Shown here: one piece after another, positions 1 through 17,979 of the stretch | Position numbering within the stretch: position 1 is the first letter of the stretch | How the letters are laid out: every line of letters begins with the position of its first letter | Source of the DNA: a virus | DNA length: 64,000 bases | Direction: 5' to 3' (one strand) | Virus record (IMG/VR): IMGVR_UViG_3300035701_000011 | Coordinates: 1-64,000 of that record | Notes under the pieces: model-generated | Database searches by the model: none | What the model saw: only the letters and a program-made list of their open reading frames with translations | Told to the model about the DNA's origin: nothing | Program-made: the position numbers and the translations under genes

Positions 1-127
1 CCAGTCGGACCTACTACGGTAGAGTCAGCTCCTGTGGGTCCTGTTGCACCTGTTGGTCCAGTCGGACCTACTACGGTAGAGTCAGCTCCTGTGGGTCCTG
101 TTGCACCTGTTGGTCCAGTCGGACCTA
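1..127. repeat. 57-bp perfect tandem repeat (2+ copies) encoding [19 protein letters not shown]
   Basis: 1-57 equals 58-114; partial third copy at 115-127. Confidence 0.95.
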
Positions 128-224
128 TTGCACCATCTGAACCAGAAGAACCAGGACCACCACCATAAACTTTTACATTAATTTTATGATTTTCAGTTTT
201 TATAATTAAATTATCAATTGACAT
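1..224 (-). CDS. Collagen-like repeat protein (tail fibre/virion protein), truncated by window edge
   Basis: ATG at 224 on the minus strand; reads [56 protein letters not shown]..., i.e. Gly-X-Y triplets. Confidence 0.85.
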
Positions 225-2201: not shown

Positions 2202-3001
2202 GTAAAATTTTTAAAAAAACAACAATCTTCCAGCACAAAGGTAGATATTTTTTACAAAAATGGTAATCTACCTATATCAAGGGTAGATGTCTTCTGAATT
2301 GAGATTAACTTATGCTTAAAACGCCCTAAAAAGACTGGTTAATCTCTCCTATATAATAAGGAAGACAAAACCTCCTAAAATAAGGTAAAATGGAATAAGA
2401 TGCCTATATATAGGTAGAAGAAGGTAGATGCTAAAAATGGTTATGTATAGTATATTATACATAAATTACAATATAATAGGTAGATAATGGTAGATTGAAT
2501 AAAAACCTACCCATAAACCCCAGATATGCCTCCCAAAAAGCTAAAATTAACCTTCCGTCTATGGATAAACTTGGTTCCCGTAAATAATAGGTAAATTTAA
2601 TATAAGTAATTGATAATAAAAAAGATAAATATAATAATCTTATTCAGCCCGACACACATTAGTAAATTAGACCATATTGTTGTAGGGATTTTTATTGTAA
2701 CATGAGTGAATAGCGAAGGTTATAGAAAATAATTAAATCGAAAGAAAAGTACAGTCTGAGTATCCCTGAATTTTTTGGGTTTTATTGCTAAATTTAACCC
2801 TACCGTCTATAACCTATTGATGTTATTAGGTTTATAATAATTGTATGCCTTTTGAATTAGATTTAACTTATAAGGAGTTAAACTCATTTGAATTATTACA
2901 TATAAACGCTTTTATTTTTTGCGACTATTTTTTTTATAATCACTCAATTAAAACCCTTTTATTATCTTATAGAGTAGTTTAAATTATTTTTTAAAATGAC
3001 C

Positions 3002-3029
3002 TTGTAATTTGCTTAAAATGTGTTATACT
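3002..3029 (+). promoter_or_regulatory. Early promoter TTGTAA-N16-TATACT with TG extension
   Basis: Precedes RBS AAGGAG and ORF 3061. Confidence 0.7.
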
Positions 3030-3060
3030 TATAATGTAGGATAGATAAGGAGATGTTAAA

Positions 3061-3339
3061 ATGGATAATTACAATAAATTTAAAATTGGTAATAAAGAAA
3101 TTGAGGTTATAAAAAACCCCGATTATAGCGATTATAATTATTTAAATAATTTATTTAAGGATAGATATCCTCATTGTTTAAGGGGCGAACCTAAAACCCG
3201 TATAGCGTATGACAAATTTGGCAATCATTATGTATGGCTTGCCGATACAATGCACGAAGAAATAAAAAACTATTTATTAAATAATTTTAATTTGATTATA
3301 AGTAATTACAATATAATAAAAGAGGGTTATAATGATTAG
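3061..3339 (+). CDS. Hypothetical early protein
   Basis: ORF with promoter and RBS. Confidence 0.7.
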   Translation: MDNYNKFKIGNKEIEVIKNPDYSDYNYLNNLFKDRYPHCLRGEPKTRIAYDKFGNHYVWLADTMHEEIKNYLLNNFNLIISNYNIIKEGYND

Positions 3340-3733
3340 AGTATTTATACCAGAGATTAAAAGGAAATTTGGCAAGAGAGATTTAGCGAGGGGTTTCTGG
3401 CGTAGCGATAGCCATAAGATTTTTTATGATTACATTAAGGTTATAAATTATAATCAGAGTATTAGGGGCATTTATTATAAAGATTTATTTTATAATTATC
3501 TTGATACTATTAAGGCAAGTTATAATCAAGAGGCATTATTTTATGTAAATGAAGCCGGGCAAGGCGTAATTTATTATAGCCGAGATAGACAAGAGGTTTT
3601 AAGTAATAGGATTTATAAAGAGGTTTTAAGGGTTAATTTAAAGGTAGAGATTAAAGAGGCGTTAAAGGTATATGGTGGTGTTACTATATATAAGATAGAT
3701 AACAAGTATTTTAAAGAAGTATTCTATAAATAA
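3332..3733 (+). CDS. Hypothetical early protein
   Basis: Overlapping ORF in operon. Confidence 0.7.
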   Translation: MIRVFIPEIKRKFGKRDLARGFWRSDSHKIFYDYIKVINYNQSIRGIYYKDLFYNYLDTIKASYNQEALFYVNEAGQGVIYYSRDRQEVLSNRIYKEVLRVNLKVEIKEALKVYGGVTIYKIDNKYFKEVFYK

Positions 3734-3745
3734 AGAGATGTTAAA

Positions 3746-3988
3746 ATGGATAACATAAAAGATTTAAGAGAAGCAATTAAAACTATAAGAGATAACAAGG
3801 ATTTTAAGGATATAACCCTAAAGGACAATGTTTATTGTAATTTATTTGGCGATAAACACCCTTTTAAATGTAGAGAAGCAATAAAGGAAGTTATATCTAT
3901 TATAGAGGTAGATATAAATTTATTAAGTTATATCCCGCAAGATATAAGAGAAATAATTAAAGAGGCGGGATATAGTATTTTTAAATAA
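3746..3988 (+). CDS. Hypothetical early protein
   Basis: ORF in tightly packed operon. Confidence 0.65.
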   Translation: MDNIKDLREAIKTIRDNKDFKDITLKDNVYCNLFGDKHPFKCREAIKEVISIIEVDINLLSYIPQDIREIIKEAGYSIFK

Positions 3989-3999
3989 GAGGTAATACA

Positions 4000-4329
4000 A
4001 TGTTAAGAGAGATTAAATATATTATTGTAAAGGATAAAATAACTGGCCGAGCGAGGCGTTATTGTTCGGAGTGGTTACATCATAGCACAATAGCAAGGGA
4101 CAATGGTTACTCCGACAGCGAGGTTATAGAGGCCGGGCTGTTTTTAGATAAGAGATGTTATATTTTAGAGTGTAAAGATTTAAGGCATATTGAAAGACGC
4201 AAGAGCCGATATATAGGTAATTGCTTAAATTTTTATCAAGATATACGCCTTGCGAATTGGTTACGAGGCCGGGAACTTGAAAGCCAAGTATATTATAGGT
4301 TGCCGGGAATTTTAAAAGAGGGCGATTAA
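4000..4329 (+). CDS. Hypothetical early protein
   Basis: RBS GAGG; tightly packed. Confidence 0.7.
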   Translation: MLREIKYIIVKDKITGRARRYCSEWLHHSTIARDNGYSDSEVIEAGLFLDKRCYILECKDLRHIERRKSRYIGNCLNFYQDIRLANWLRGRELESQVYYRLPGILKEGD

Positions 4330-4330
4330 A

Positions 4331-4711
4331 ATGATAAAATTATATCATTATAGCAATAAGGATTTTAAGGGGTATATTAAGCCAAGTTTTTTTGGTTTAA
4401 ATAATTATACATCTGCAAGTAAAGAATTAAGCGGATATAAGCGGATTTATTTTTATGCAGATGATAAAAGTAGAGAGTATTTTTTTAATGGTAGTAAGTT
4501 TTTGTATATTGCAGAGATAAAACAAAATAAAGTATATGATTTAAAAATAGATGTTTTAAATTGTATAGGCAATTTTGACAGCATAAGTGAGTTTATATCT
4601 TATATAAGTAGTAAGGGATTTAAGGGATTTAAAGATTTTAATGGTAAACAAGATGTTATATGCTTATTTAAAGCGATAAAAATAATTGATAAAATAACCT
4701 TGACAAGATGA
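4331..4711 (+). CDS. Possible ADP-ribosyltransferase-like protein, paralog of 5429-5821
   Basis: MIKLYHYS.KDFKGYI.P.FFG.N.Y...R.YFY...REY.F shared by both copies; LYH..YF pattern is ART-like. Confidence 0.45.
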   Translation: MIKLYHYSNKDFKGYIKPSFFGLNNYTSASKELSGYKRIYFYADDKSREYFFNGSKFLYIAEIKQNKVYDLKIDVLNCIGNFDSISEFISYISSKGFKGFKDFNGKQDVICLFKAIKIIDKITLTR

Positions 4712-4728
4712 TTTTTATATGTTATACT
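4700..4728 (+). promoter_or_regulatory. sigma70 promoter TTGACA-N17-TATACT
   Basis: Consensus -35, near-consensus -10 with TG extension. Confidence 0.85.
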
Positions 4729-4781
4729 TTTTATATAAAGGGTTGCAGTTTATCCTTTGAAAACTGCGAGAGTAATAAAAA

Positions 4782-5357
4782 GTGAGGGATAAAATGTTAT
4801 ACAGAGCAAAAAGCGATAAGGATATTGGCGTAAAGGGTTGTAAAGTGGTGGGAATTGGTGATGTTTTTGGTTATGAATTGATACAAAACTTTTTTGTGGA
4901 CAATAGCGGATTTGGTAGTGATGATGAGCCAGCATTGACTTTTAGCAATTTTTTAACAAAGGTTAAGGCAGGTTATTTTTATGGAATTAGAGATGTAGGG
5001 CAGTTTCAAGTTAATATCGGAGAATTTAAAAAAATAGCCAAGCCAAGAGCCGAGATATTAGCCGAACAGGGAATTGTAAGTAGTAAGTTAATAAAAAATA
5101 ATACAAGGTTGACTATATATAAAAATGGCGACAAAGTTTTGAGGTTACATTCTACGGATATAATAAAATGGCAAGGTAACAAGATTATTTTAAATTCTGG
5201 CGGTTGGGATACAATGACTACAAGGGCAAGGTTTAACGAATTTTTACCCGACAGAATATCTATATTTAGAAAAAAAGGGGTTACTTATATTAAAAATTCT
5301 TTAAAATATCCCGACGAAATTACAGAGTTTAGCGACGGAATAGAGATTAACCTTTAA
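4782..5357 (+). CDS. Hypothetical early protein
   Basis: C-terminal LHSTDI...LNSGGWDTMTTRARFN motif common in phage early proteins. Confidence 0.7.
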   Translation: MRDKMLYRAKSDKDIGVKGCKVVGIGDVFGYELIQNFFVDNSGFGSDDEPALTFSNFLTKVKAGYFYGIRDVGQFQVNIGEFKKIAKPRAEILAEQGIVSSKLIKNNTRLTIYKNGDKVLRLHSTDIIKWQGNKIILNSGGWDTMTTRARFNEFLPDRISIFRKKGVTYIKNSLKYPDEITEFSDGIEINL

Positions 5358-5428
5358 TTTTTAAGGCATAGCAAGGGCAAGGTTACATTATTTTAAGGTA
5401 AGGCATACAATATAAGGGGGCGATTAAG

Positions 5429-5821
5429 ATGATTAAATTATATCATTATTCGAGCCAAGATTTTAAGGGGTATATTGAGCCGGGATTTTTTGGGGCTAAT
5501 AGTTACTCTAATAATTCCGCAAGGTTAAGCGGAGTTAAGCGGAGTTACTTTTACCTTGACCGAGCCGGCCGGGAGTATTATTTTGAGGGGGCAAGATATT
5601 GCTATATAGCCGAGATTAAGGAAAGCCGATTATATAATCTTAACATTGACCCTTTAAAACTGGCCGGGCGTAACATAAGGGATATATTCGCTTATATTAA
5701 GCGGTTAGGTTATAAGGGTTTAATCGGCTCTAATGGATATAAGGACGGGGTTATATTCTACCCGATAAAAATAAAACAGCGTAAGACCTTGACAGAGGCC
5801 GGGCGATATGCTATACTATAA
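5429..5821 (+). CDS. Possible ART-like protein, paralog of 4331-4711
   Basis: Clear sequence similarity to ORF 4331. Confidence 0.45.
   Translation: MIKLYHYSSQDFKGYIEPGFFGANSYSNNSARLSGVKRSYFYLDRAGREYYFEGARYCYIAEIKESRLYNLNIDPLKLAGRNIRDIFAYIKRLGYKGLIGSNGYKDGVIFYPIKIKQRKTLTEAGRYAIL
5789..5817 (+). promoter_or_regulatory. sigma70 promoter TTGACA-N17-TATACT
   Basis: Consensus -35, near-consensus -10. Confidence 0.85.
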
Positions 5822-6077
5822 TCAAAAGGGGGTTACAATGATAAATTTTAAGCAATATATCGGAAAGCGGTTTATAGTAAAGGGATTTAATGAGCCGAGA
5901 GAATTAGAAATTGTAGAGGGTTATTTTTTAGGCAATAATAAGCGATACCCGACTTTTAAGTGTAAAGTTATAACCGATACAAAGTATTTTAAGGTGGGCG
6001 ATAGAGAAAATTTTTTGTATAGGGATATAATTAAGGCCGGGCAGTTAGTAAAAGAAATTAAAGTTTTATCAGCGTAA
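5808..6077 (+). CDS. Hypothetical protein (start likely 5838)
   Basis: G-rich RBS before the second ATG. Confidence 0.6.
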   Translation: MLYYNQKGVTMINFKQYIGKRFIVKGFNEPRELEIVEGYFLGNNKRYPTFKCKVITDTKYFKVGDRENFLYRDIIKAGQLVKEIKVLSA

Positions 6078-6087
6078 GGGGGGTAAA

Positions 6088-6270
6088 ATGTTAGACAGAT
6101 ATAGACAGAATTTAAAAGTTGAGGGTAGCAAAGTATATTCTTATAATACTTTAGTAGCCGAGATTAACAGCGAGGCCGGGGAATTGCGTCAATTAGGTTG
6201 GTGGAGTGTAACTACTCAAAAACATATAAATTATGTAAGCCGGGAATTAGGTTTAAAAATAGTTAAATAA
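6088..6270 (+). CDS. Small phage early protein
   Basis: YSYNTLVA...WSVTTQKHIN motif recurrent in phage early regions. Confidence 0.7.
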   Translation: MLDRYRQNLKVEGSKVYSYNTLVAEINSEAGELRQLGWWSVTTQKHINYVSRELGLKIVK

Positions 6271-6286
6271 AAAAAGGGGGTGTAAG

Positions 6287-6592
6287 ATGAAAACATATAT
6301 TGCAAGAGGTTTTGTTTTAGGTAAAAATTGGGGCGGTGGTTTTGGGGCTTATGAAAGCCGAGAAATTAGGGCAAAAAGTAAAGCCGAGTTATTAAAACTG
6401 GCCGAGCAAGATTTAAAAAGTGGGGCGTTAGATAGCGGTATGGGTTTTGAATTTTTAAAGGGGGCAAGGTTGGATATAAAAGAAGTTGACCGGGTTATTG
6501 TAAAGGGTAAAGAATACGAAAGAGCCGAGTATATAACAGAATTTATCGGAAATTTGACAGAAAAAGAGCAAGATTTTTTGTTAGAATTATAA
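6287..6592 (+). CDS. Hypothetical early protein
   Basis: G-rich RBS, packed operon. Confidence 0.7.
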   Translation: MKTYIARGFVLGKNWGGGFGAYESREIRAKSKAELLKLAEQDLKSGALDSGMGFEFLKGARLDIKEVDRVIVKGKEYERAEYITEFIGNLTEKEQDFLLEL

Positions 6593-6742
6593 AAAAGGGG
6601 GGTTAAAAATGAGAAAACCTTTTTATAAAATATCTATAATAGGATATTATAAATTATTAAGATATTATGTTATCGGTATTTTAGCCGATATTAGATTATT
6701 TATATTTAAAAAATGGTATAAAATATAACAAAGGGGGTTGTT

Positions 6743-6931
6743 ATGGGAAATCTTTTTGAATTGGCAGAATTGCAGTTAATAAAAGAGGGGAAAGAGCCGA
6801 CAGAGGCGTTAATTTTAAGCCGGGCGGTTGCTATTAGGCGGTGGTTAGATAAACATAGAGGCATAGCGGACAAGATACTGGCCGGGCGTAAGGTTTATCA
6901 ATATGGGAATAGGTTTGTATGTAGTAAATAA
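6743..6931 (+). CDS. Hypothetical protein, paralog of 13814-14050
   Basis: G.LFELAE..L..E...A..IR.WLD shared. Confidence 0.7.
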   Translation: MGNLFELAELQLIKEGKEPTEALILSRAVAIRRWLDKHRGIADKILAGRKVYQYGNRFVCSK

Positions 6932-6943
6932 AGGGGGTGGATA

Positions 6944-7162
6944 ATGATTAAAGATTTTAGACCAGAAAAAGATTTATTTAATCAAGGTTATAAAGTAACT
7001 ATTTATAAAACTAAAAAAGAAATTACAGAAATTAGTTTTATAAAGAAAACTAAAACAAAAACTTTAGGCGTAAGTTATGGTTGTGATAGTTTTAAGCAAA
7101 AAGATTTAAGAGATGTTTTTAATTTTATAAAAAATAACGGATATAAATATAGTATCAATTAA
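6944..7162 (+). CDS. Hypothetical protein
   Basis: RBS and ORF. Confidence 0.6.
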   Translation: MIKDFRPEKDLFNQGYKVTIYKTKKEITEISFIKKTKTKTLGVSYGCDSFKQKDLRDVFNFIKNNGYKYSIN

Positions 7163-7179
7163 AAAAAGGGGGGTAAAAA

Positions 7180-7389
7180 ATGGCAAAAAAATTTGATTTA
7201 GTAGGGGCAATTATGAGTTATGAGGCCGGGGAGTTAAGAGGGCAAGAGGTTTTAAGGTTATTTAGCGAGTTAATAAAAAGCGGTAAGGCGTGGAGTTTGC
7301 AAGGGAGTTATGGGCGTATGGCCGGGCGGTTGATAGACGAGGGCTATTTATCAGCAAAAGGCGAGATATTAAAAGAGGTTGAGAAATAA
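7180..7389 (+). CDS. Conserved phage early protein
   Basis: IMSYEAGEL...LF..LI.SG.AWSLQGSYGR.A..LI motif. Confidence 0.75.
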   Translation: MAKKFDLVGAIMSYEAGELRGQEVLRLFSELIKSGKAWSLQGSYGRMAGRLIDEGYLSAKGEILKEVEK

Positions 7390-7695
7390 ACTGACCGGGC
7401 GAGTGTAAGGCGAGGCGATAGCGAGGCAACGTGTATATTATAAGGGGGTAATTTAAAATGAGATATTATATAGTTTATTTTACTACCATAACAAGTTTAT
7501 TAGTTTTTGATACTTTTAAAAATGTATTTGAAAAATTTGGCAGTAAAGTATTATATATAAAAGAGGTATAAGATAGAAATTTATTTTATCAAAAAGACCC
7601 GAGAAAATTTTAAAGAAATTAAAGAGTTATATAAAGACCTTAAAAAGAGCCGAAAGGATTTACATAAGTTATTGTAAGACAAGGAGTTATGATAA

Positions 7696-8133
7696 ATGAG
7701 GCAGTATAGATTTGGGGAGTGCATAGCCGAAAGTGTAAAGGTATATAATCGATTAAAAAGGCAACGCAAAAACCCTAAATTAGTTGAGGGGTGGGTAGAG
7801 GTTAGCGACTGGCCGGGTAATTTATTACCTTGCAGAGAATTTTTAGAATTATATTATCCCGATATGATTAAAAAATTAGATAAAGATATTTTATTTGATG
7901 ATTATATTAGAGTTTTACCGCATACTTGGGTTATTTGCGACGGAAAAATTATTGATAAGACCCGAAATCAGTTTGATATTTATGGCGGTATATTAGTTTA
8001 TTACGAAAAAATGAAATATAGACCGAAAGGAAAAGCAAAAGCATATAATATAGAAAATTGGTTTGATGAAAGAGATTATATTATAACAAGGGATAAATTT
8101 ATACATTATCCCGACGAGATAAAAGCAAAATAA
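7696..8133 (+). CDS. Possible transglutaminase/papain-like (Cys-His-Asp) protein
   Basis: GEC near the N-terminus, LVEGW, HTWV..DG.IID.T..QF. Confidence 0.45.
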   Translation: MRQYRFGECIAESVKVYNRLKRQRKNPKLVEGWVEVSDWPGNLLPCREFLELYYPDMIKKLDKDILFDDYIRVLPHTWVICDGKIIDKTRNQFDIYGGILVYYEKMKYRPKGKAKAYNIENWFDERDYIITRDKFIHYPDEIKAK

Positions 8134-8233
8134 AAAAATTTAATTTTACATACCCAGAAAATAATTAAAAAATTATTTTTGAAAAAAGTTGTAAGTTGTT
8201 GTAAGACATAAAGATAAAAGTTTTACGATACCC

Positions 8234-8262
8234 TTGACAAGACCCGATTTTTATGTTATACT
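8234..8262 (+). promoter_or_regulatory. sigma70 promoter TTGACA-N17-TATACT
   Basis: Consensus -35, near-consensus -10. Confidence 0.85.
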
Positions 8263-8289
8263 TAATTAGAAACTAAAAGAGAGGATATA

Positions 8290-8685
8290 ATGAGAGCCGA
8301 TAAAATAATAGAGGCAAGACCGATAGCCGAGCAGTTAAGAGATTTAATTTGTAATAAGTATAATCTTAATCCGATAAAAATTAGGGTTAAAGATATTAGA
8401 CAGGGATTTGCTTATTACGATAACCGAGCGATTAGCATACCGATTTGGGCTTATTTAGAGGGATTAGATTATTTTAGGGCTTATGTTTTACACGAATTAG
8501 GGCATTTTATAAATTATGATACTACGGAAACATACGGACATAACAAGAATTTTAAGAGAATAGAAAAAGAATTATTGGCCGGGTTTGGATTAGTGCCTAT
8601 ATATAAGAGAGTTTATATTAAGGCATTAAAAAATGATAAAGGTGATTTAGTATGGTTAAAAAGAGGATATGAAAATGAAATTTAA
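8290..8685 (+). CDS. SprT-like zinc metalloprotease
   Basis: YVLHELGH followed by GHNKNFK. Confidence 0.7.
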   Translation: MRADKIIEARPIAEQLRDLICNKYNLNPIKIRVKDIRQGFAYYDNRAISIPIWAYLEGLDYFRAYVLHELGHFINYDTTETYGHNKNFKRIEKELLAGFGLVPIYKRVYIKALKNDKGDLVWLKRGYENEI

Positions 8686-8899
8686 GCAAGAGATAAAAGA
8701 GATTAACGGAATAAGAAAAGCAATTTGTCCGATTTGTAAAGAGATTATTGATTATCCTTTTGGAGTTTATTTTAGAAATGGCGTAGAAGTGCATACAAAA
8801 TGTATTACCATAGCAAGATTAAGACGAGACCAGATAAACGGAATAGATAGGTAAGGACTTCCGGGAAAGCAAAAGGATATGTTATACTTATAAAGAGAG

Positions 8900-9193
8900 G
8901 TGAAAATGGACAATACCGAAATTAGAAAAGAAATTAAACGACTTAAAAGATTAAAAAAAGATTTGAGGCCGGGAAGTAAAGAACGAATAGAGATTTTTAG
9001 GAAAATTAAAGACCTTAAAAAGCAAAGAGCCGAAATTACCGCAGTAGAGCCGGGCAAAGAGGAATTGATAACCGAAATTTTAAGTATATATGATAAGCAA
9101 AACATTAAGCCGAGATTTGAGGATATAGGGATAGATTTACATATTTATACCATAAAACAATTAGAACTTCATTTAAAAAAGATAAGACCTTGA
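8900..9193 (+). CDS. Hypothetical protein
   Basis: Extended -10 (TGTTATACT 8880-8888) and RBS upstream. Confidence 0.6.
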   Translation: MKMDNTEIRKEIKRLKRLKKDLRPGSKERIEIFRKIKDLKKQRAEITAVEPGKEELITEILSIYDKQNIKPRFEDIGIDLHIYTIKQLELHLKKIRP

Positions 9194-9218
9194 CAGATAA
9201 AAAAGTATATGTTATACT
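9190..9218 (+). promoter_or_regulatory. sigma70 promoter TTGACA-N17-TATACT
   Basis: Upstream of the 552-aa gene. Confidence 0.85.
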
Positions 9219-9241
9219 TTAATTAAAAGGAGTTAGATTAA

Positions 9242-10900
9242 ATGATTAAAAAATATCATATAGAAAATACCGACGAAACTTATTTAAGGATATGGCAAAA
9301 AATAAATTTAGGTAAAGAAATTTTGGTTAAAGAATTTTTTGAGGAAAATAAAGTAAATGAAAGTGATGAGAGTTATAGATTAAATGTTTGTCAATATGAC
9401 CCGAATACCCGACTTTTTTATTTAGGTGGTTTTTTATATTGGGTTACTTCTGATGAGGCAATTTATAATTATCTTGATACAGGCCGGGCGGTTAGTTTAT
9501 ATGAGAGAAGTCATTATAGTAATGATAATATAGCGAATTTTTACATATACAATGATTTACTTATTACGGATAAGGATATAATAGATTTTGAAAATTATAA
9601 AGATAAGAAAAATTTAAGTTTAAAAATTTTATCCGAAACTGATACCGAAAAAGTAAATTTAATTTTTAACGAGGATTTAGACAAAATTAAAAGCCGATTA
9701 GCAGAAATCCGAGCCGAAGAAGAACAGATAAAAAAATCAGAAGTAAAAGAAAAAATAGATAATACACAAGAAGAAGAACGATTAGTCAGTTTGATTAGGC
9801 AATATGATAAAATGACTTTATTAGAAGATACAGAGACAATAATTAAGGATAATTATTTTATAGATAAAGACGAGGGATTTAAAATTGAATTTAAAGATAA
9901 AGTTGTAAAACTTTTTAGTAAAAATGATTTAGTAAGTGAAAGTTATTATGGGGGTAATTTTATACAGATAAATTTTAGAAATTTTTTAGATAAATTAGAG
10001 AGAGTTTATAGTCAAGGAAAATACGCCGAACCGATAGAGGAAAAATTAAAAGGATTAAATAAAAAGTGGTTAAGTTTTAAGATTTATTCTTATGATAAAG
10101 AAACAAAAGCCGAAGTATTTTTAAAAGAAATAAAAATAGAAAATAATGTTAATGATAAAAGTAAAAGAAGATTTAAAGTAAATGGCGTAAAAATGCCGAT
10201 ACAAAAAATGGCTAAAGTATTAGAGTTTATTTTAGCCGGGCGTTACGGACACGAAAGGGAAACGACAATAGAGAGATTAACTAACCTTGAAAAGTATTTA
10301 GAGCAGATTAGGTTATATAGCGGAACGCAATTAGAATTATTACAGGGTAAGACCATAGAAATAACTTTAAGTGGAGTTAGAATACCTATACATTTTAATA
10401 TAATGGCAGAGGATAAAGACCGCTGGGAAATTAGTATTGACGATTTTAAGGTAAAGAGAGATTATACCGCAGTAAAAGATAGTTTTAGGTGGTTAAGAGG
10501 TGGTGGTTTGACCGCTATTAGTAAAATTTGCGATACGCTAAAGGCCGGGCAGAAATTAGAGGACATTTTAATAGGTAAGGTAAAAGGTTATGTAGAGAAA
10601 CGCAGATTAGCCGAAGAAAAGGCAGAGAAACTATTTGCAGAATTTTTAGAAAAGAATAAGACCAGAGTATTTAAAAGAGAGGGTGGTTATATTGTAAAGG
10701 GTAAGTTAAAGAATTATTTAGTTAAGATGAAAAATGACGAGGACTGCGGAGTTTGGAGTTACCCGAATAACGAGTATGTATGTATAAATGAAAAAAGTAG
10801 AGCCGGGCAATATCTTTGTAAGGCAGATAAATTATTGCAGTTTTGTCTTGTTATGCTAAACGACGGAAATTTACGCAACGAAATCACAACGATACATTAA
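9242..10900 (+). CDS. 552-aa protein with C-terminal Cys-containing domain; candidate partner of the Ubl/E1 pair
   Basis: C-terminus AEEKAEKL...YIVKGKLKNYLV...PNNEYVCI...DKLL...MLND resembles (from recall) the domain at the C-terminus of DUF4132-type proteins. Confidence 0.55.
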   Translation: MIKKYHIENTDETYLRIWQKINLGKEILVKEFFEENKVNESDESYRLNVCQYDPNTRLFYLGGFLYWVTSDEAIYNYLDTGRAVSLYERSHYSNDNIANFYIYNDLLITDKDIIDFENYKDKKNLSLKILSETDTEKVNLIFNEDLDKIKSRLAEIRAEEEQIKKSEVKEKIDNTQEEERLVSLIRQYDKMTLLEDTETIIKDNYFIDKDEGFKIEFKDKVVKLFSKNDLVSESYYGGNFIQINFRNFLDKLERVYSQGKYAEPIEEKLKGLNKKWLSFKIYSYDKETKAEVFLKEIKIENNVNDKSKRRFKVNGVKMPIQKMAKVLEFILAGRYGHERETTIERLTNLEKYLEQIRLYSGTQLELLQGKTIEITLSGVRIPIHFNIMAEDKDRWEISIDDFKVKRDYTAVKDSFRWLRGGGLTAISKICDTLKAGQKLEDILIGKVKGYVEKRRLAEEKAEKLFAEFLEKNKTRVFKREGGYIVKGKLKNYLVKMKNDEDCGVWSYPNNEYVCINEKSRAGQYLCKADKLLQFCLVMLNDGNLRNEITTIH

Positions 10901-10912
10901 AAAGGGGGATAT

Positions 10913-11074
10913 ATGGAAGGAAAAAAGATATTATCAATAGACGAAATGACCGAGAAAATAGAGAGATTAGGGCATAGGGCGGTTTGGAATTTGATAGAAA
11001 AGATAGGGAATTGGCAAGACCGAATTGCATATAGACAATTATTCTTTCTGACCGGGGGCAGTTTAGATGATTAG
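10913..11074 (+). CDS. 53-aa protein not in ORF track
   Basis: RBS AAAGGGGG; MEGKKILSIDEMTEKIERLGHRAVWNLIEKIGNWQDRIAYRQLFF...; similar to C-terminus of ORF 20404. Confidence 0.65.
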   Translation: MEGKKILSIDEMTEKIERLGHRAVWNLIEKIGNWQDRIAYRQLFFLTGGSLDD

Positions 11075-11078
11075 GGGC

Positions 11079-11108
11079 TTGACAGATAGCAATAAGGTAT
11101 GCTATACT
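11079..11108 (+). promoter_or_regulatory. sigma70 promoter TTGACA-N18-TATACT for the Ubl-E1 unit
   Basis: Consensus -35 and TG-extended -10. Confidence 0.8.
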
Positions 11109-11143
11109 TATAGTAGAAGATACAAAAAAGAGGGGGTGTTAAA

Positions 11144-11341
11144 ATGATTAGGGTAATAGTATTAGATGAGAGTGGAGATACAAGGTTAGAAGTGGCAACG
11201 ATAGACGAATTAAAGGCAAAGGTTGACTTAAAAGATAAGTTTATTTTTGCTGATAATAAGTATATCAACGAAGTTACTCTTGACGGAATTACTCAATTAC
11301 CGAGAGAAATAGTAGTTACCGAAAGACTAATTGGTGGCTAA
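11144..11341 (+). CDS. Ubiquitin-like (beta-grasp) protein with C-terminal Gly-Gly
   Basis: 65 aa, N-terminal beta strands, ends ...VVTERLIGG-stop, immediately upstream of a ThiF gene. Confidence 0.75.
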   Translation: MIRVIVLDESGDTRLEVATIDELKAKVDLKDKFIFADNKYINEVTLDGITQLPREIVVTERLIGG

Positions 11342-11432
11342 ATTCTCTCGTAAGGGTTGACCTAAACGAGTGGGGTTAGCCGAAGAAGTTATAATCCCAC
11401 TCTGTCTTTATAAAAAATTAAAGGAGTAAAAG

Positions 11433-12023
11433 ATGAAAGATAATCTAAAAATAGCAGTAATAGGATTAAACGGAATAGGTAGTTATTTTGTCAGGGGTTT
11501 ATCCGAGTTAATTAAAAAAGATGTGGCCGGGCTTGACAGAATAAATGTTATGGGTATAGATTTATTTGATTTTGATACCATAGAAGAAAAGAATTTTAGT
11601 TATACCATTTATGATATTGAGCATATTGGAAGAAATAAGGCAGAAGTAATGGCAGAAATGACAGGGTATAAGGCAAGAGCCGAGAAAATAGAGAGAGCCG
11701 AGCAGTTAGCCGAGTATGACCTTGTTATTATGGCAGTAGATAATAATGAAGTGCGAAAAATTGTTTATGAGGCCGGGAGACCATTTATTGATTTAAGGGC
11801 TAAAGGTAAGGCAGTTATGGTATATTTGACACAAAAAGACGATATAGAATACCTTAATTTGACAAAAGATACAGGGGAAAAGGGCGGTTGTCAGTATGAT
11901 AGGGATATAGAAGAAAAGACCATTGAACTTGGAAATCGTGTGGTTGCGGAATTAGGTTTGCAGTATTTAATTGACTATTGTAGGGGTAAAATAGAAAAGA
12001 AGAATACGATTTTAATGATTTAA
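11433..12023 (+). CDS. ThiF/E1-like adenylyltransferase
   Basis: IAVIGLNGIGS, DFDTIEEKN, IGRNKAE, DLVIMAVDN..VR; candidate catalytic Cys in GGCQ. Confidence 0.9.
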   Translation: MKDNLKIAVIGLNGIGSYFVRGLSELIKKDVAGLDRINVMGIDLFDFDTIEEKNFSYTIYDIEHIGRNKAEVMAEMTGYKARAEKIERAEQLAEYDLVIMAVDNNEVRKIVYEAGRPFIDLRAKGKAVMVYLTQKDDIEYLNLTKDTGEKGGCQYDRDIEEKTIELGNRVVAELGLQYLIDYCRGKIEKKNTILMI

Positions 12024-12748
12024 AAAAAGGGGTAGAAATGAAATTATCTAAAAAAGTTTTAATTCCGAAAGAAGTATTAAAAGATAAACAATATAATGCT
12101 ATTAGTGATTATTTATCAGATAAGTTTGGTTTTTGTGTTAATTCTTTTGAATTAAAAGGTAATTATGCAATTAAAATAAATTGGGATATAACTATTTAAA
12201 AAAGGGGGTATAAAATGCAAAGAAACATAGTGAGGTTAGCATTAAAGTTAAAAAAAGAACTGCAAGAGGATATTCTTAATAGATATGATAATAGCGAGTA
12301 TTGGGAAACGCAGGTTGCAGATGATTTTTATAAGGATAATAAAGTAAATGATGATGAGGCACAAAAGATTATAGAGATTTTAGAATTATAATTTTTTAGA
12401 GTAAAGCGAAAGTAGGGAACATAAAATTTTAGGGATAATACCCTAAACGAAGAAATCTCTACCACTCTAAAAATTAAATAAAGAGGTTAAAAATGAGAAA
12501 GATTAGAGAAATTTTAGGGTTACCCTTTATGTTTTGTGGATTTATTTTAATTGCAGTAGGTATGATTATTAGTTTTGGATTTAGAACTTTTGAGGAATTT
12601 TCTGATGAATTTAATAAGCATTTTAATTAAAATGAATAAGACCAGAATAATACTCAAAAATAATTTTTTAAATCTACCCGGGAAGATGCTTCATTATAAT
12701 TTTTTTCTCTTCCCGGCCACAATAAAATTTTAAGAAAAGGAGTATAAA

Positions 12749-13135
12749 ATGGTAAAAATGGCAAGTATCAAAAAGGTAAAAACATACGAAGATTTAGAGG
12801 CATTAGGAATTGGTAGAGTTTATTGTGATATATCTTATAGGGGTGGTGGCATTGGTTTTTATGCCGAAGATGTAGCAAGGGCGTTTGATGTTAGCGATTA
12901 TCAATTACCCCGACATTTTGGGGCAGGTTGCAATTATTTAGGCGGTGGTTTAAGGGGTAGTATCTTTGCAAGTGATTTTTCTAAAGAAATTACAGGTAAG
13001 AAAAGGCAGTTATTGGAAGCATTGGCAGAAGCGTGTGTTAGGGCATATGAGAGTTGTGAAAATGAGGGTGAAATTGAAGATGACCCTATAAATACAGGAA
13101 TTGGCCGGGTAAAAGGAGTAAAAAGTGCATATTAG
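12749..13135 (+). CDS. Hypothetical Gly-rich protein
   Basis: RBS AAGGAG. Confidence 0.7.
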   Translation: MVKMASIKKVKTYEDLEALGIGRVYCDISYRGGGIGFYAEDVARAFDVSDYQLPRHFGAGCNYLGGGLRGSIFASDFSKEITGKKRQLLEALAEACVRAYESCENEGEIEDDPINTGIGRVKGVKSAY

Positions 13136-13173
13136 AAGACAGACCGGAAGAAAATTTTTTTAGCACGGGGAAA

Positions 13174-13485
13174 ATGATAAAATTACCTATATATAAAGGC
13201 AAAGCATACCGAGTAGAGAGTAATCTTTTATTTGGTGGTAAGACCATTTTAGATGTGATTAAATTTGAAGAACAAGAATTGGGTAATAAACAAGATTATA
13301 AACATCTTTCTTCAAAATTAAGAAAAGAATTATCTAAAATTCCTGCCGATAGATGTATTTGGGTTTGTAAAATAAAACAAGACGCAAAGATATACGGAAC
13401 TCCCGAAGAAATACAATTAGGTAAAAATCCTAAAATAATCGCATACGATTATTGTGGGGGATATTTAGTATTAAAAACAAAATAA
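13174..13485 (+). CDS. Hypothetical protein
   Basis: ORF with RBS. Confidence 0.6.
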   Translation: MIKLPIYKGKAYRVESNLLFGGKTILDVIKFEEQELGNKQDYKHLSSKLRKELSKIPADRCIWVCKIKQDAKIYGTPEEIQLGKNPKIIAYDYCGGYLVLKTK

Positions 13486-14196
13486 TAATTAAGGAGGAAC
13501 AATGTTAAAAAAATTTTTTATAAATCTTTATAGGAGGTTAGATAATTTTTTAACAATGATTTGTAGAGAAATTAGCCAGAGGAGGATATAATGAAAAAAG
13601 ATAGAATACATTACGAGGTTTTTACTTCTGATTATAAAACAGGCAGAACGGAAACAATAGCGAGTTTTGATACTTTAAGACAAGCAAAAATATATAGAAC
13701 TAAATTAGCAAAAACAGGATATTGTAAAAAGAACGAAAAAAGTTTATACATCGATAAATGGATAAATGAAACTCCTTATAATGTAAATTGTTAATAAAGA
13801 AAGAGAGGACATTATGCGTAAAATAGGTAGTTTATTTGAACTTGCAGAAAAAAGGTTGATGAGAGAAAAAAAGTTAGGAATAATCCCTTGTTATACCTTG
13901 TCAGATGTAATAGAGTATGCAATTTTGATAAGAAAATGGTTAGATAATAACCCGAACCGAATAAATAAAATTATGAAATTGACCCGGGAAGAGTTAAAAA
14001 GAAATCACAGGGAAAGTCAGAAAAGATACGCATTAAAAATAAGGAAATAAAATGATTAAAATAACTAAATTTTGTATTGGAAAAAAGAAAAAATATAAAG
14101 GAATAGCCATAAAATTATTGTGGTTTAAATTTGAAAGAATTGGATTTGGAAATAAATTTATGTGGAGATTTGAATTTACTAATTGGGAAGAATAGA

Positions 14197-14217
14197 AATC
14201 AGGATTTATGTTATACT
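14197..14217 (+). promoter_or_regulatory. Extended -10 promoter AATCAGGATTTATGTTATACT
   Basis: Identical 21-mer at 15650-15670; variant at about 22247-22268. Confidence 0.7.
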
Positions 14218-15649
14218 TCACTAGTTAAACACAATATAAAAGGAGAAGAAAGATGTTATATAATATAGTTAGAAACGGAAAGTGTTTAAGTTGTGGACAA
14301 TTATCAAGTATGTTTATAGCCGAAGCAGAAGCAAAAAATTCTGAAGAAGCAATAGATATAGCAAAAAGCCATTGGATAAACGAAAAATATGGCGACGCAG
14401 GAAGTTTAAGAGAAGAAGAAATTAGAGAAGAAGATGAATTTTTACAAGGAGATTTTGTAGCAGAAAAAGTAAATTAAAATGAAATATCACGCAGGAGTAA
14501 TTTTAAAGACAGGCGAAGTTAAAGGCAGGGCTTTTGAAGATAAATCAAGTGCGGAAGCATATATCCTTGATTTAGCCGAGAAAGAGGATATAAAGCAGGG
14601 TAGGATAAGAAATTTAAGCACAGGTGAGGAAGAAGTAATAAACTTTTAAAAAGAAGAATAAGATGAAAAAGAAATTTAGAGTAAGTTATAGTGAAATAGT
14701 GCATTACGAGGCAACGATAATAAAAGCACAGGACAAAGACGAAGCAGATGAAATTTTTAGAAATATGTTAGATAATGGTGATATTGAAGTAGATGAAACC
14801 AAGATTGAACATTTTGATATTGAAGAAATTGAAGAAACAGAATAAATAAAATAATAAAATGATACGACTAAAATGCTCTAATAAAAGTTGTGCTTATTGT
14901 TATTCAATTTCTGTAAAAGAATTTGAAGAATACAAAGATACTTACCATAATTTTTGTATGATTTGTGGCAGTAAATTAGAAGTTACTAATCTGGAAGAAA
15001 TTGTTGCTAAAGATATTTATAAAAGAGCAGAAGAATACATAAATAAATGGGTAGCGGATTTGGGGTGGGATAGAACTTTAGATTTAATAGAAAAAAATAA
15101 AGACCAAGCGTGTTATAGAATTTATAAAGAAATACTTGAGAAAAGGGGATTTAAGATAAAATGACAATAGGATATTTTGGGAGAGCATTTAATTTTAAAC
15201 ATAAATCATTAACTACGAAAACGCATATAGTAAATAATGACAGGGTATTATGCGGATATAAACCTCATAAGACATTAAGTTTTCAATGGTGTATTATAGG
15301 GGTAGGAATAAATAAATTAGATATAGTAGAGTGTAAAGAGTGTAGAGTAAGAGCCGAAAAATTATTACAAAAGGAGAAAGTAAAATGAAATACTTTTTAA
15401 TAAAAGTAGAAATCAGAGATGGTGAAATGGAATATAGAGAAGCAATTACTATAAGGGCAAATACTCTTGATGAAGCAGGAAAAATAGCCGATAAAAACCT
15501 TAAAAAAGAATTTAGTTATGGTAAGGGAGATTATCGGTTATTTGAAGTAGCAAGTATTCAAGAAATTAAAGAAAATGAAGCAAAACTATTATCTAATTTA
15601 GGATTAAGTTATGTTGTTAATTAGATTTAATTCTTATTTAGTTAAATAT

Positions 15650-15670
15650 AATCAGGATTTATGTTATACT
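15650..15670 (+). promoter_or_regulatory. Extended -10 promoter AATCAGGATTTATGTTATACT
   Basis: Second identical copy. Confidence 0.7.
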
Positions 15671-16537
15671 ATAAGAAAGAGAGGAAAAGATGAATAAATG
15701 TATTATTTGTGGATACAATATAGAAACTTTACAAGATGAAAATGCGGTAACTTATAATGGTAAAGACGGATTTATGTGCGAGAAATGTTTTACAAAAGAT
15801 ACAAAAAAAGAAAATATAAAAATTATACCCACTTTTATTATTAAATGTAATGAACCGATAAGCAAAGAAGCATACGAAGTTTTAGTGCAAGAAATAAGCG
15901 AGTGGACAGCAGAAAATAATCTTTATTTAGATGATGTAATAGAAGAAAAGGAGTAAAAAATGCCTAATACGACTTGTATAAAATGTGGTAAAATGGCTTA
16001 TGAATTAAATGATGAAATAATTTGTTTAAAGTGTAATAAACCCGAAAAACAATGTACTTGTTGCACAATTCATTATGAATTAAATAATAATAGAGAAACA
16101 ATAAAAACTATTAAACGCCACTTAAAAGGAATTGAAATTGCGGTTAAAAAATTAGAAAAGGAGTAATTATGGCAAAGAAAGTTAAATGGAATTATGCAGT
16201 TGTTAAGAGTATATTTGGTGATTATTGGGTAGGGAAAACAAAATTAAAGGCAGATGAGATAACAATTTTTGCGGATATTGAAGATGTTATTAAACAGGTA
16301 GAAGAACAATTTTTAGATGAACATATTGATTTTGACCCTAATTTAGATGAAGATGATGAAAATTATGATGATGAATTAAATTATAAGTTTGAGGAAATAA
16401 GAGAACACGCAGAAGAACCCGATGAAATTACAAAAGGAATGGAAAAATTTATTGTAAAGAATTATTAATAATAATTTAAAAACCTTAATTACTTCTCTGA
16501 ACTAAAAAAGAGAACTCATTAAGGCAAGAGATTTAAG

Positions 16538-16587
16538 ACCTATTTACCCAAGAAATTGGCTCAATAGAGGGGTAGATAGGTTTTTTT
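16538..16587 (+). terminator. Intrinsic terminator-like hairpin ending the early region
   Basis: ACCTATTTACCC / GGGTAGATAGGT followed by a T-run. Confidence 0.6.
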
Positions 16588-16622
16588 ATTGTATAAATTA
16601 CATTTTAAGATATACTTATAAC

Positions 16623-16697
16623 TAGGTAATAAAGTAGGTAATAAAGTAGGTAATTTGGCTTAAAGTAGGTAAAATAAGAGATTATTACCCACTTTAT
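16623..16697. repeat. Direct and inverted repeats of TAAAGTAGGTAA
   Basis: TAGGTAATAAAG x2 plus a partial copy, another copy at 16661-16672, inverted copy at 16683-16697. Confidence 0.8.
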
Positions 16698-16722
16698 AAG
16701 ATAAGGGCAAGAAAGGGCTACA

Positions 16723-16974
16723 ATGACCAAAAAACAAGGCAAAAATAGAGGCATAGAGAGTTTATTGGGCTATTTAGATGAGCAAATAAATGGTTATTAT
16801 CAAAAGACAGGAAATTATCCGATTAAATTAATTATAAGTAAAGAAACAAGAGATAAAATATTTGCTGAATTAAATTTAGAGCCGACATTAGATAATTGCT
16901 GGTTTAATAAAAAAGACAATTATAGAAATATAAAAATAGAAATATCTAATATAGAGCAGATAAAATTAGAATAG
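16723..16974 (+). CDS. Hypothetical protein
   Basis: ORF preceding the RuvB-like gene. Confidence 0.55.
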   Translation: MTKKQGKNRGIESLLGYLDEQINGYYQKTGNYPIKLIISKETRDKIFAELNLEPTLDNCWFNKKDNYRNIKIEISNIEQIKLE

Positions 16975-16983
16975 GAGAAGTAT

Positions 16984-17979
16984 ATGTTTGATTTTGATTT
17001 ATTAGGTATGATAGTAGGAATGGGAGATTTATTATTGGAAAAGGTGGGATTAAAAAAATCTGAACAATATCATTCTGAACAGATAGAACCAGTTAAATTT
17101 GATTTCACGCCTACTAATCTTGATGAATATATCGGTCAAATCAATGCAAAATTAAGAATAAATACTTATATCAAAAAAGTTATGACAATAAAACCTATTC
17201 ATTTATTGATTAGTGGAACAAGAGGACACGGGAAATCAACCCTTGCTTATATTATTTCTAATTTATTAGGATTGCCGATAGATACTTATGTTGGTGGGTC
17301 ATTTACAAAAGAAAATCTAATAAAATTTTTAGCAAAAAGTCAAAATGACCACAATAATTTACATATTCTTCTTATTGATGAAATTCACGGATTGGAAAGA
17401 GAAGTAACCGAATATATGCTTCCAATACTTCAAAGTTTTATACTTCCAGAAGGAAATTTAAAATTAAAAAAATTTATAATGCTTGGTTGTACTACGAATT
17501 TAGAAATATTACAAAAAAAAGCAGAACCCTTTGTTGATAGATGTGATACCATTGAATTAGAGTGTTATACCGCAAGTGATATAAAACAAATTCTCAAACA
17601 ATATAATGATAAATTGTATCATAAAAATATTCCAGACGAAATATATGATAAAATTTCTATTAATACAAGATATAATCCGAGAACAAGTTTATCGGTTTTT
17701 GAGGATTTTCTTGTAGAAGAAAATATAGAACGAGTTTTGGGGGGTAGACAAATAATAAAAAATTCCTTAACAGTAAAAGATATTATTATATTAAAACATC
17801 TAATTGAAATAAACAAACCCGTAGGAGTAGAAGTATTATCGATATTAACTCAACAGACTAAACAAACATATATGGAATTACAAGAACCATTTTTGATACA
17901 ACAGGGATTTATTTCTCGCACAGCGAGAGGTAGACTTGCCACAGAAAAGGCAAAAAATTTCTTACAAGAAATAAAATGA
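16984..17979 (+). CDS. ruvB: RuvB-like Holliday junction branch-migration AAA+ ATPase
   Basis: P..LDEYIGQ, GTRGHGKST, IDEIHGL, EPFLIQQGFISRTARGR. Confidence 0.85.
   Translation: MFDFDLLGMIVGMGDLLLEKVGLKKSEQYHSEQIEPVKFDFTPTNLDEYIGQINAKLRINTYIKKVMTIKPIHLLISGTRGHGKSTLAYIISNLLGLPIDTYVGGSFTKENLIKFLAKSQNDHNNLHILLIDEIHGLEREVTEYMLPILQSFILPEGNLKLKKFIMLGCTTNLEILQKKAEPFVDRCDTIELECYTASDIKQILKQYNDKLYHKNIPDEIYDKISINTRYNPRTSLSVFEDFLVEENIERVLGGRQIIKNSLTVKDIIILKHLIEINKPVGVEVLSILTQQTKQTYMELQEPFLIQQGFISRTARGRLATEKAKNFLQEIK

Follow-up and report, generated by a model that had tools for sequence, protein, structure and literature searches.

A dense, strand-polarised GCCGGG word confined to the early genes of an uncultured AT-rich phage

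Oriented words with a skewed distribution, such as Chi and the FtsK-orienting polar sequences (KOPS), are central to bacterial chromosome biology, and we know of none that marks a single temporal class of phage genes. Low-GC Firmicutes have Chi-type words that include AGCGG and GCGCGTG; in phage T7, all copies of an asymmetric word, the EcoP15I site, lie in one orientation; and the nicks of phage T5 are few and spread over the whole genome. At the level of RNA, phage T4 RegB cleaves GGAG, inactivating early T4 mRNAs (PMC1702504). At the level of DNA, resistance of BF23 and other Tequintavirus phages (the T5 group) to restriction-modification systems requires that the first-transferred DNA be free of the sites, and T5-type phages combine two-step entry with sequence-specific nicks (PMC10644984). 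Here, we analyse the first 64,000 nucleotides (the window) of the virus record IMGVR_UViG_3300035701_000011, a 97,145-bp genome of an AT-rich (27% GC), uncultured phage, in which the word GCCGGG is crowded almost exclusively onto one strand of an early gene block that has lost nearly all of its short palindromes containing G or C. To our knowledge, an enriched oriented word within such a purged early block is undescribed, and a literature search for the word itself returned nothing relevant.

A pattern search of the whole 97,145-bp genome finds 27 copies of GCCGGG, 26 of them on the + strand and one on the − strand, all within positions 3554–13109; neither strand has a copy in the rest of the record (~84 kb, of which 51 kb belong to the window and 33 kb lie beyond it). 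GCCGAG occurs 17 times on the + strand of the window, 15 of these between 3579 and 11709, and once on the − strand. An earlier note on the window had listed 26 + strand positions and one reverse copy, seen none in the remaining ~50 kb and mentioned many GCCGAG; every coordinate proved exact, and the absence extends through the further 33 kb of the record. Its estimate that fewer than one copy would arise by chance was too low, since dinucleotide shuffles of the window give about two (1.96 ± 1.56, largest 7). The main features are as follows.

3554–13109, + strand: oriented-word field with 26 GCCGGG, 15 GCCGAG and 51 GCCGRR in total; mean spacing 191 bp; logo R-GCCG-R-(G>A)-(A/C).
12712–12717, − strand: the sole reverse GCCGGG; a CCCGGG is present in the same 118-bp spacer.
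3000–17000, no strand assigned: palindrome-purged early block of 14 kb, nearly all G/C-containing short palindromes missing, with the word field as its first 10 kb.

Among the 66 + strand copies of GCCG between 3 and 17 kb, position −1 is a purine in 60 and position +4 in all 66, position +5 is G more often than A, position +6 is A or C, and no signal is seen further out; the 60 copies that fall in 3.0–13.2 kb give the same logo by themselves. The full word in this phage is R-GCCG-R-R, with CCGGG as its core. Its strand polarity (+:−) is 26:1 for GCCGGG and 66:3 for GCCG, and all 41 copies of GCCGGG and GCCGAG in the field are located inside open reading frames (ORFs). The word gives no signal for the consensus pause element of RNA polymerase (G at −10/−11).

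The simplest explanation would be that there is no dedicated signal, and that the word merely follows from how codons are used locally, from amino-acid content, from strand composition or from a restriction purge that leaves few safe contexts for C. The early block does have its own codon usage, with GAG, CCG, GCC and AGC raised (42%, 49%, 29% and 26% in early ORFs vs 11%, 5%, 12% and 3% in the rest), together with extreme purine loading and an excess of CpG, and a maximal-order Markov expectation explains the hexamer from its pentamers. Controls at the codon level, based on 25 ORFs called in 3.0–13.2 kb, speak against this explanation: synonymous-codon shuffles yield 2.6 ± 1.5 copies of GCCGGG (maximum 9 in 2000), codon-order shuffles yield 1.2, and a synonymous Markov-chain shuffle barred from creating purged words, including 6-bp palindromes around CCGG and GGCC, yields 4.1 ± 1.9 (maximum 8). 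Thus, when codon usage, protein sequence and the purge are preserved, shuffling accounts for one to four copies, nine at most. In early ORFs, the base after a GCC codon is G in 36 of 37 cases, a rule absent from the rest of the genome (12 of 64). Furthermore, the word spends two Cs where one would do, creates CCGG and GGCC that are otherwise removed, and is independently enriched in relatives of the phage.

As the earlier note had claimed, all three reading frames are used, and the frame counts of 15/6/5 (giving AG, GR/SR and xPG) compare with 1.24/0.27/1.14 expected; enrichment in each of the frames places the selection at the nucleic-acid level. The dipeptides AG (19 vs 8.8 expected) and AE (28 vs 10.4) are two- to three-fold over-represented, and since this excess is confined to early proteins, the word bends their amino-acid sequence. 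The enrichment survives the local codon and dinucleotide controls that the note had named as its own possible refutation, and the word is neither two-stranded nor genome-wide. GCCGGG is therefore a positively selected, strand-specific cis-word acting at the nucleic-acid level; that codon usage or the restriction purge produced it incidentally is largely refuted, and we regard this as improbable.

The purge itself is extensive. Between 3 and 17 kb, about 20 palindromic words that are normal elsewhere are at or near zero: observed over expected counts are 1/24 for ACGT, 0/33 for AGCT, 0/18 for CATG, 2/22 for CTAG, 1/20 for GTAC and 3/16 for TCGA, and there is no copy of GATC, GCGC, CGCG, CCWGG, GGWCC, GCWGC, GANTC, GGNCC, GCNGC, CTNAG or ACNGT. 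The TC and CT dinucleotides are depleted two- to three-fold, and the GC skew is 0.36–0.49. AATATT (1/31) and ATTAAT (2/31) are purged in the early block only, the other six AT-only palindromic hexamers being normal; C depletion is unable to explain this loss, which suggests that the host population has enzymes of the SspI and AseI types. Outside the block, avoidance is limited to GATC (0 vs ~200), GCGC, CGCG, CCGG (3 vs 30), GGCC (1 vs 52) and a few 6-mers, and as non-palindromic GC-only 4-mers are at expectation there, the genome-wide avoidance is specific to palindromes. Across all 97 kb, GATC (~200 expected), GCGC and CGCG number zero, and AAGCTT, CTTAAG, GTTAAC, GATATC and AGATCT are at or near zero. 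This restriction-avoidance profile is very strong, and the genome has no methyltransferase gene.

Against this background, the purged block holds 35 CCGG and 21 GGCC, of which 26 and 18 stand within GCCGGG and GGCCGGG, respectively. The two palindromes, removed from the rest of the genome, thus survive almost only inside the word. Because the purge-respecting shuffle gives 4.1 copies compared with 26 observed, the word is not a side effect of the purge; it is an exception to it, which argues for positive selection. Judged from composition, the purge appears to be the signature of DNA exposed before the phage disarms its host, and the block behaves as first-exposed DNA would.

Relatives were found by searching with a 552-aa early protein and the RuvB-like ATPase of the phage, which returned many fragments and two full-length genomes, G001 (109.6 kb, ~65% identity in the 552-aa protein; its locus is L009) and G002 (96.5 kb, at a similar distance; its locus is L010). 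The local purge of palindromes from the early block is seen in both. In G001, the coding strand of a 7-kb stretch carries 22 of the 23 GCCGGG, and CCGG occurs 47 times in that stretch, compared with about one to two times in the other ~95 kb. In G002, CCGG reaches 8–13 per kb in the early block vs ~1.5 per kb elsewhere; GGCC is absent genome-wide, and the word takes the form T/A/G/C-CCGGG with no preceding GG. Synonymous shuffles leave CCGGG well above expectation at both loci (32 vs 6.3 in L009, 48 vs 7.9 in L010). The polarity that the earlier note had suggested looking for in related phages is therefore evident in G001 and weaker in G002, where the reverse form CCCGG is also enriched. Fragments L014, L020 and L029–L036 are word-rich as well, and 10 kb of the early block of a distant relative, L018, are not.

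In L018, CGCAAG (40:1) was considered as an alternative polar word and rejected, as it derives from two tandem-repeat arrays with no dispersed word. These arrays, both inside its early block (L018 positions 1964–2240 and 8095–8440), consist of an 18-bp unit repeated ~15 times and a 12-bp unit, GGTCGCAAGTTN, repeated ~30 times. A one-way field of a different word, GGAAA, is absent from all of the relatives examined.

Comparison of alignable orthologues shows that 14 of 25 CCGGG sites are common to L009 and 7 of 16 to L010, and that gains and losses are often non-synonymous. Since sites are only partly shared, and codon identity is not raised where the word stands relative to the remaining synonymous sites, the sites turn over. 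Density and direction are kept across the relatives while positions change, which indicates that function would depend on the number and orientation of copies rather than on exact position. The gene for the 552-aa protein and its Ubl/E1-like neighbours co-occur with the word, which may just reflect shared descent; the predicted fold of the protein (mean predicted local distance difference test score, pLDDT, 57) was too poor for a structure search.

The limits of the word field correspond to a set of promoters, listed here together with the class that replaces them.

3002–3040 (~3010), + strand: first early promoter candidate, weaker than the five below; TTGTAA/TTGCTT ... TGnTATACT/TATAAT; an AAGGAG ribosome-binding site comes next, and then the first early ORF (3061).
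4700–4728, + strand: strong host-type promoter, TTGACA-17-TGnTATACT, 11/12 matches.
5789–5817, + strand: strong host-type promoter with a GCCGGG copy (5798) in its spacer.
8234–8262, + strand: strong host-type promoter, near-consensus TTGACA-17/18-TGnTATACT.
9190–9218, + strand: strong host-type promoter, near-consensus TTGACA-17/18-TGnTATACT.
11079–11108, + strand: strong host-type promoter, near-consensus TTGACA-17/18-TGnTATACT.
14196–14252, also 15625–15689, + strand: second promoter class, AATCAGGATT plus TATGTTATACT with no −35 element, in the word-free part of the purged block.

The five TTGACA-17/18-TGnTATACT sites (4700, 5789, 8234, 9190 and 11079) all lie on the + strand, and there are no others in 97 kb. 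The early genes are most likely transcribed by host RNA polymerase from these near-consensus promoters. Promoters from 14 kb on keep TATGTTATACT and have lost the −35 element. The word field begins ~500 bp past the first promoter, spans exactly the units of the five strong promoters and ends at 13.1 kb, where the promoter class changes; the purge continues to 17.0 kb. As the strong promoters are confined to 3–13 kb and the class is a different one from 14 kb, the field coincides with the strong host-type promoter units. This fit, the CCGG and GGCC within the word, and the end of the field 4 kb before that of the purged block are all points that the earlier note missed. Its proposal of an oriented signal on first-injected or first-transcribed DNA holds in so far as the word is oriented, confined to early genes and set in a purge like that of first-exposed DNA; each of the functions it listed is a candidate.

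We rank first, at a probability of roughly 0.3, the reading that recognition takes place in RNA, on the sense strand, where the word would serve as a tag on immediate-early messages. A sequence-specific factor, either an endoribonuclease or an RNA-binding protein of phage or host origin, would treat word-bearing early messages differently, and middle and late messages, which do not have the word, would escape that treatment, much as T4 RegB cuts GGAG to retire early mRNAs. An RNA tag is placed first because the field tracks the promoter-defined units rather than the purged block, and because the word is sense-strand, frame-independent and absent from later genes. The distribution is also that expected of a RegB-like target, with 26 sense copies at 3.5–13.1 kb and none in the other 84 kb.

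Several observations weigh against an RNA tag. The early proteins, orphans apart from a ThiF/E1-like one, include no candidate reader gene, and since all genes of the block run in the same direction, the RNA and the non-template DNA strand are not separable. No conserved RNA hairpin was found around the word, only trivial pairing of rare Cs with abundant Gs, and the lower-density subword GCCG is not purged from the sense strands of middle genes (18 observed vs 15 expected). RegB sites occur mainly in ribosome-binding sites, whereas the word copies lie inside ORFs. Moreover, the reverse orientation CCCGG is also enriched in G002 (22 vs 4.2), weakening the polarity there, although this excess comes partly from CCCGGG, from promoter spacers and from the following repeat.

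L010 5993–6100 (G002), in a 348-aa early ORF: 39-nt tandem repeat with two CCCGG per unit.

Finally, an RNA tag leaves unexplained the tolerance of CCGG and GGCC within the word, given that both are removed elsewhere as double-stranded sites. That CCGG and GGCC are tolerated only in the context of the word, as if the copies were protected, is rather what one would expect of a double-stranded mark, in which CCSGG or GCCGGG would be bound or modified by a host methyltransferase or by a phage DNA-binding protein (a silencer or protector of early genes), and polarity would be largely secondary to a C-poor coding strand. The core of the word is indeed the quasi-palindrome CCSGG, its flanks avoid all 6-bp palindromes around CCGG, and G002 is enriched in both orientations and, with GGCC purged across its genome, has a word free of GGCC. 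The polarity in the window nevertheless goes beyond what composition allows: CCCGG is absent from the window ORFs (28:0), where ~8 copies would be expected under equal enrichment and the prefix CCCG is present 23 times. The copies show no helical phasing or regular spacing, their spacing being approximately exponential (coefficient of variation 1.09), and searches of the phage genome for C5, N4/N6 and N6 methyltransferases (PF00145, PF01555, PF02384) and for the TGT family (PF01702) found none. We consider such a mark unlikely.

Close behind the RNA tag, and possible though still doubtful, we place a Chi-like signal, recognised on one DNA strand by a host end-processing helicase-nuclease of the AddAB or RecBCD type. 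A dense oriented cluster in first-exposed DNA would, by analogy, halt degradation and limit the fragments that serve as CRISPR spacers or as Argonaute guides. The word is short, oriented, G-rich and GC-rich in AT-rich DNA, like the Chi-type words of low-GC Firmicutes, for example GAAGCGG (bioRxiv 10.1101/2021.07.08.451572), and AAGGAG-type ribosome-binding sites, extended −10 promoters and one protein-atlas match point weakly to a host among the Bacillota. Function would rest on density, with turnover of sites, and the word sits in a block that resembles first-exposed DNA. Phages can carry non-randomly placed Chi, as in P1, where 50 sites become denser toward the packaged ends (bioRxiv 10.1101/2021.07.08.451572), and hotspots of spacer acquisition at free ends are bounded by Chi and AddAB-dependent (PMC8860600). 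The geometry is less favourable: with canonical polarity, a + strand word would stop an enzyme moving from right to left, which would fit entry from the late-gene side but not entry at the left end, next to the first promoter. The field also stops at the promoter-class boundary, 4 kb inside the purged block, and the CCGG and GGCC in the word are a restriction liability.

The strict polarity would equally suit sites used on one strand only, either as targets of a strand-specific nickase or as a loading word that orients a DNA translocase pulling in the remaining genome, in the manner of KOPS or the SpoIIIE recognition sequences (SRS). The word occupies the non-template strand, where nicks would spare transcription, and its + strand orientation leads out of the early block into the genome beyond; the many HNH genes of the genome are nickase candidates, and the one-strand interruptions of T5 and BF23 provide a parallel. 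T5 nicks, however, are few and genome-wide, the RuvB-like ATPase lies outside the purged block and is present also in relatives without the word, and an FtsK/SpoIIIE-like motor (PF01580) was absent from the phage genome, though the host might supply such a motor. This explanation, too, is in our view an unlikely one.

Besides the RuvB-like ATPase, the genome carries a tape-measure gene, PolB and a PrimPol-helicase. A crAss-like identity, suggested by the two-arm layout, was rejected, as a tape-measure gene is present and the giant RNA polymerase is absent. The 111-bp 'direct terminal repeat' of the record (window 1–170 and the record end) was likewise rejected as marking true genome ends: it is a 57-bp tandem repeat (57% GC) in a collagen-like gene on the − strand, and the apparent terminal repeat is an assembly overlap and no physical terminus. 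Being intragenic, it leaves the early block only presumptively first-injected. A DNA search of a phage collection gave no match to this genome, PolB and PrimPol searches returned only remote cultured phages (~24% identity) and no close cultured relative, and the MFS/BT1 gene, searched against genome contigs for a link to a host, had no match. Early proteins have no family matches except ThiF (E1-like), Kyano_Gp96 and a weak match to SprT.

Two further features flank the early block.

1550–2489, no strand assigned: cluster of GGTAGA(T) iterons immediately upstream of the early block, in the divergent non-coding stretch that separates it from the structural arm.
16469–16722, + strand: non-coding spacer of 254 bp on the right-hand border of the purged block; it contains AGTAGGTAA repeats at 16634, 16646 and 16665 (three to four copies) and one GGTAGAT at 16571.

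The iteron cluster occupies the same place in G001 and G002, its position thus being kept in three genomes, and it may be an origin, a packaging site or a regulatory site. The spacer is a possible border element, positioned like an injection stop signal. Alone in the divergent region, and facing away from the early block, is a small PD-(D/E)XK-type nuclease-like gene (1652–2143, − strand; weak HSDR_N_2 match, under the Pfam cut-off). There are also two paralogous pairs of small early genes, 4331–4711 with 5429–5821 (beginning MIKLYHYS...) and 6743–6931 with 13814–14050.

More broadly, we give somewhat less than even odds to the idea that in some phage lineages a dense, lineage-specific, one-way word serves as a mark on immediate-early DNA or RNA, by which a dedicated reader tells the first-expressed block from the rest. 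The word passes every compositional control, its density is kept across relatives at ~65% protein identity in the gene compared, and it is retained although it carries two restriction sites eliminated from the rest of the genome. If the idea is correct, the word would represent a class of phage cis-signal not yet described, one that overrides restriction-site avoidance and bends early-protein sequence. If its reader were found, a new stage in early infection would come to light, be it the sorting of messages, the protection of ends or the entry of DNA, and the word would provide a sequence handle for spotting immediate-early regions in uncultured phages.

Among known systems, the T7 EcoP15I sites share with this locus an asymmetric phage word in one orientation, but they would explain polarity only and not a ten-fold enrichment in one block, and GCCGGG has no adenine for a Type III methylase. 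KOPS and SRS are likewise polar, G-rich words with many one-way copies, read by a directional motor (FtsK/SpoIIIE); they are, however, chromosome-wide, skewed toward dif and unrelated in sequence, and this phage encodes no such motor. Chi is short, oriented and G-rich, depends on number and orientation, and is GC-rich even in AT-rich Firmicutes, whereas here the word is confined to one 10-kb transcription-defined block, contains restriction palindromes, and has a polarity that fits only if the nuclease comes from the late-gene side.

T4 RegB is similar in that a short sense-strand word singles out early messages for inactivation (PMC1702504, PMC3014915). It differs in that its sites, mainly in ribosome-binding sites, need S1 and sequence context, whereas the word described here occurs inside ORFs in all frames at ~1 per 190 nt and has no known nuclease gene to go with it. 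The first-step-transfer DNA of T5 and BF23 resembles our 3–17 kb block in comprising small early genes that need to survive unprotected, and by this analogy the purged block follows, as another instance, the T5-type logic for DNA that is exposed first. Here there is no long terminal repeat and two-step entry is conjectural; and whereas T5-type DNA is noted for the sites that it lacks, the early block of this phage is set apart by an oriented word in which it is enriched.

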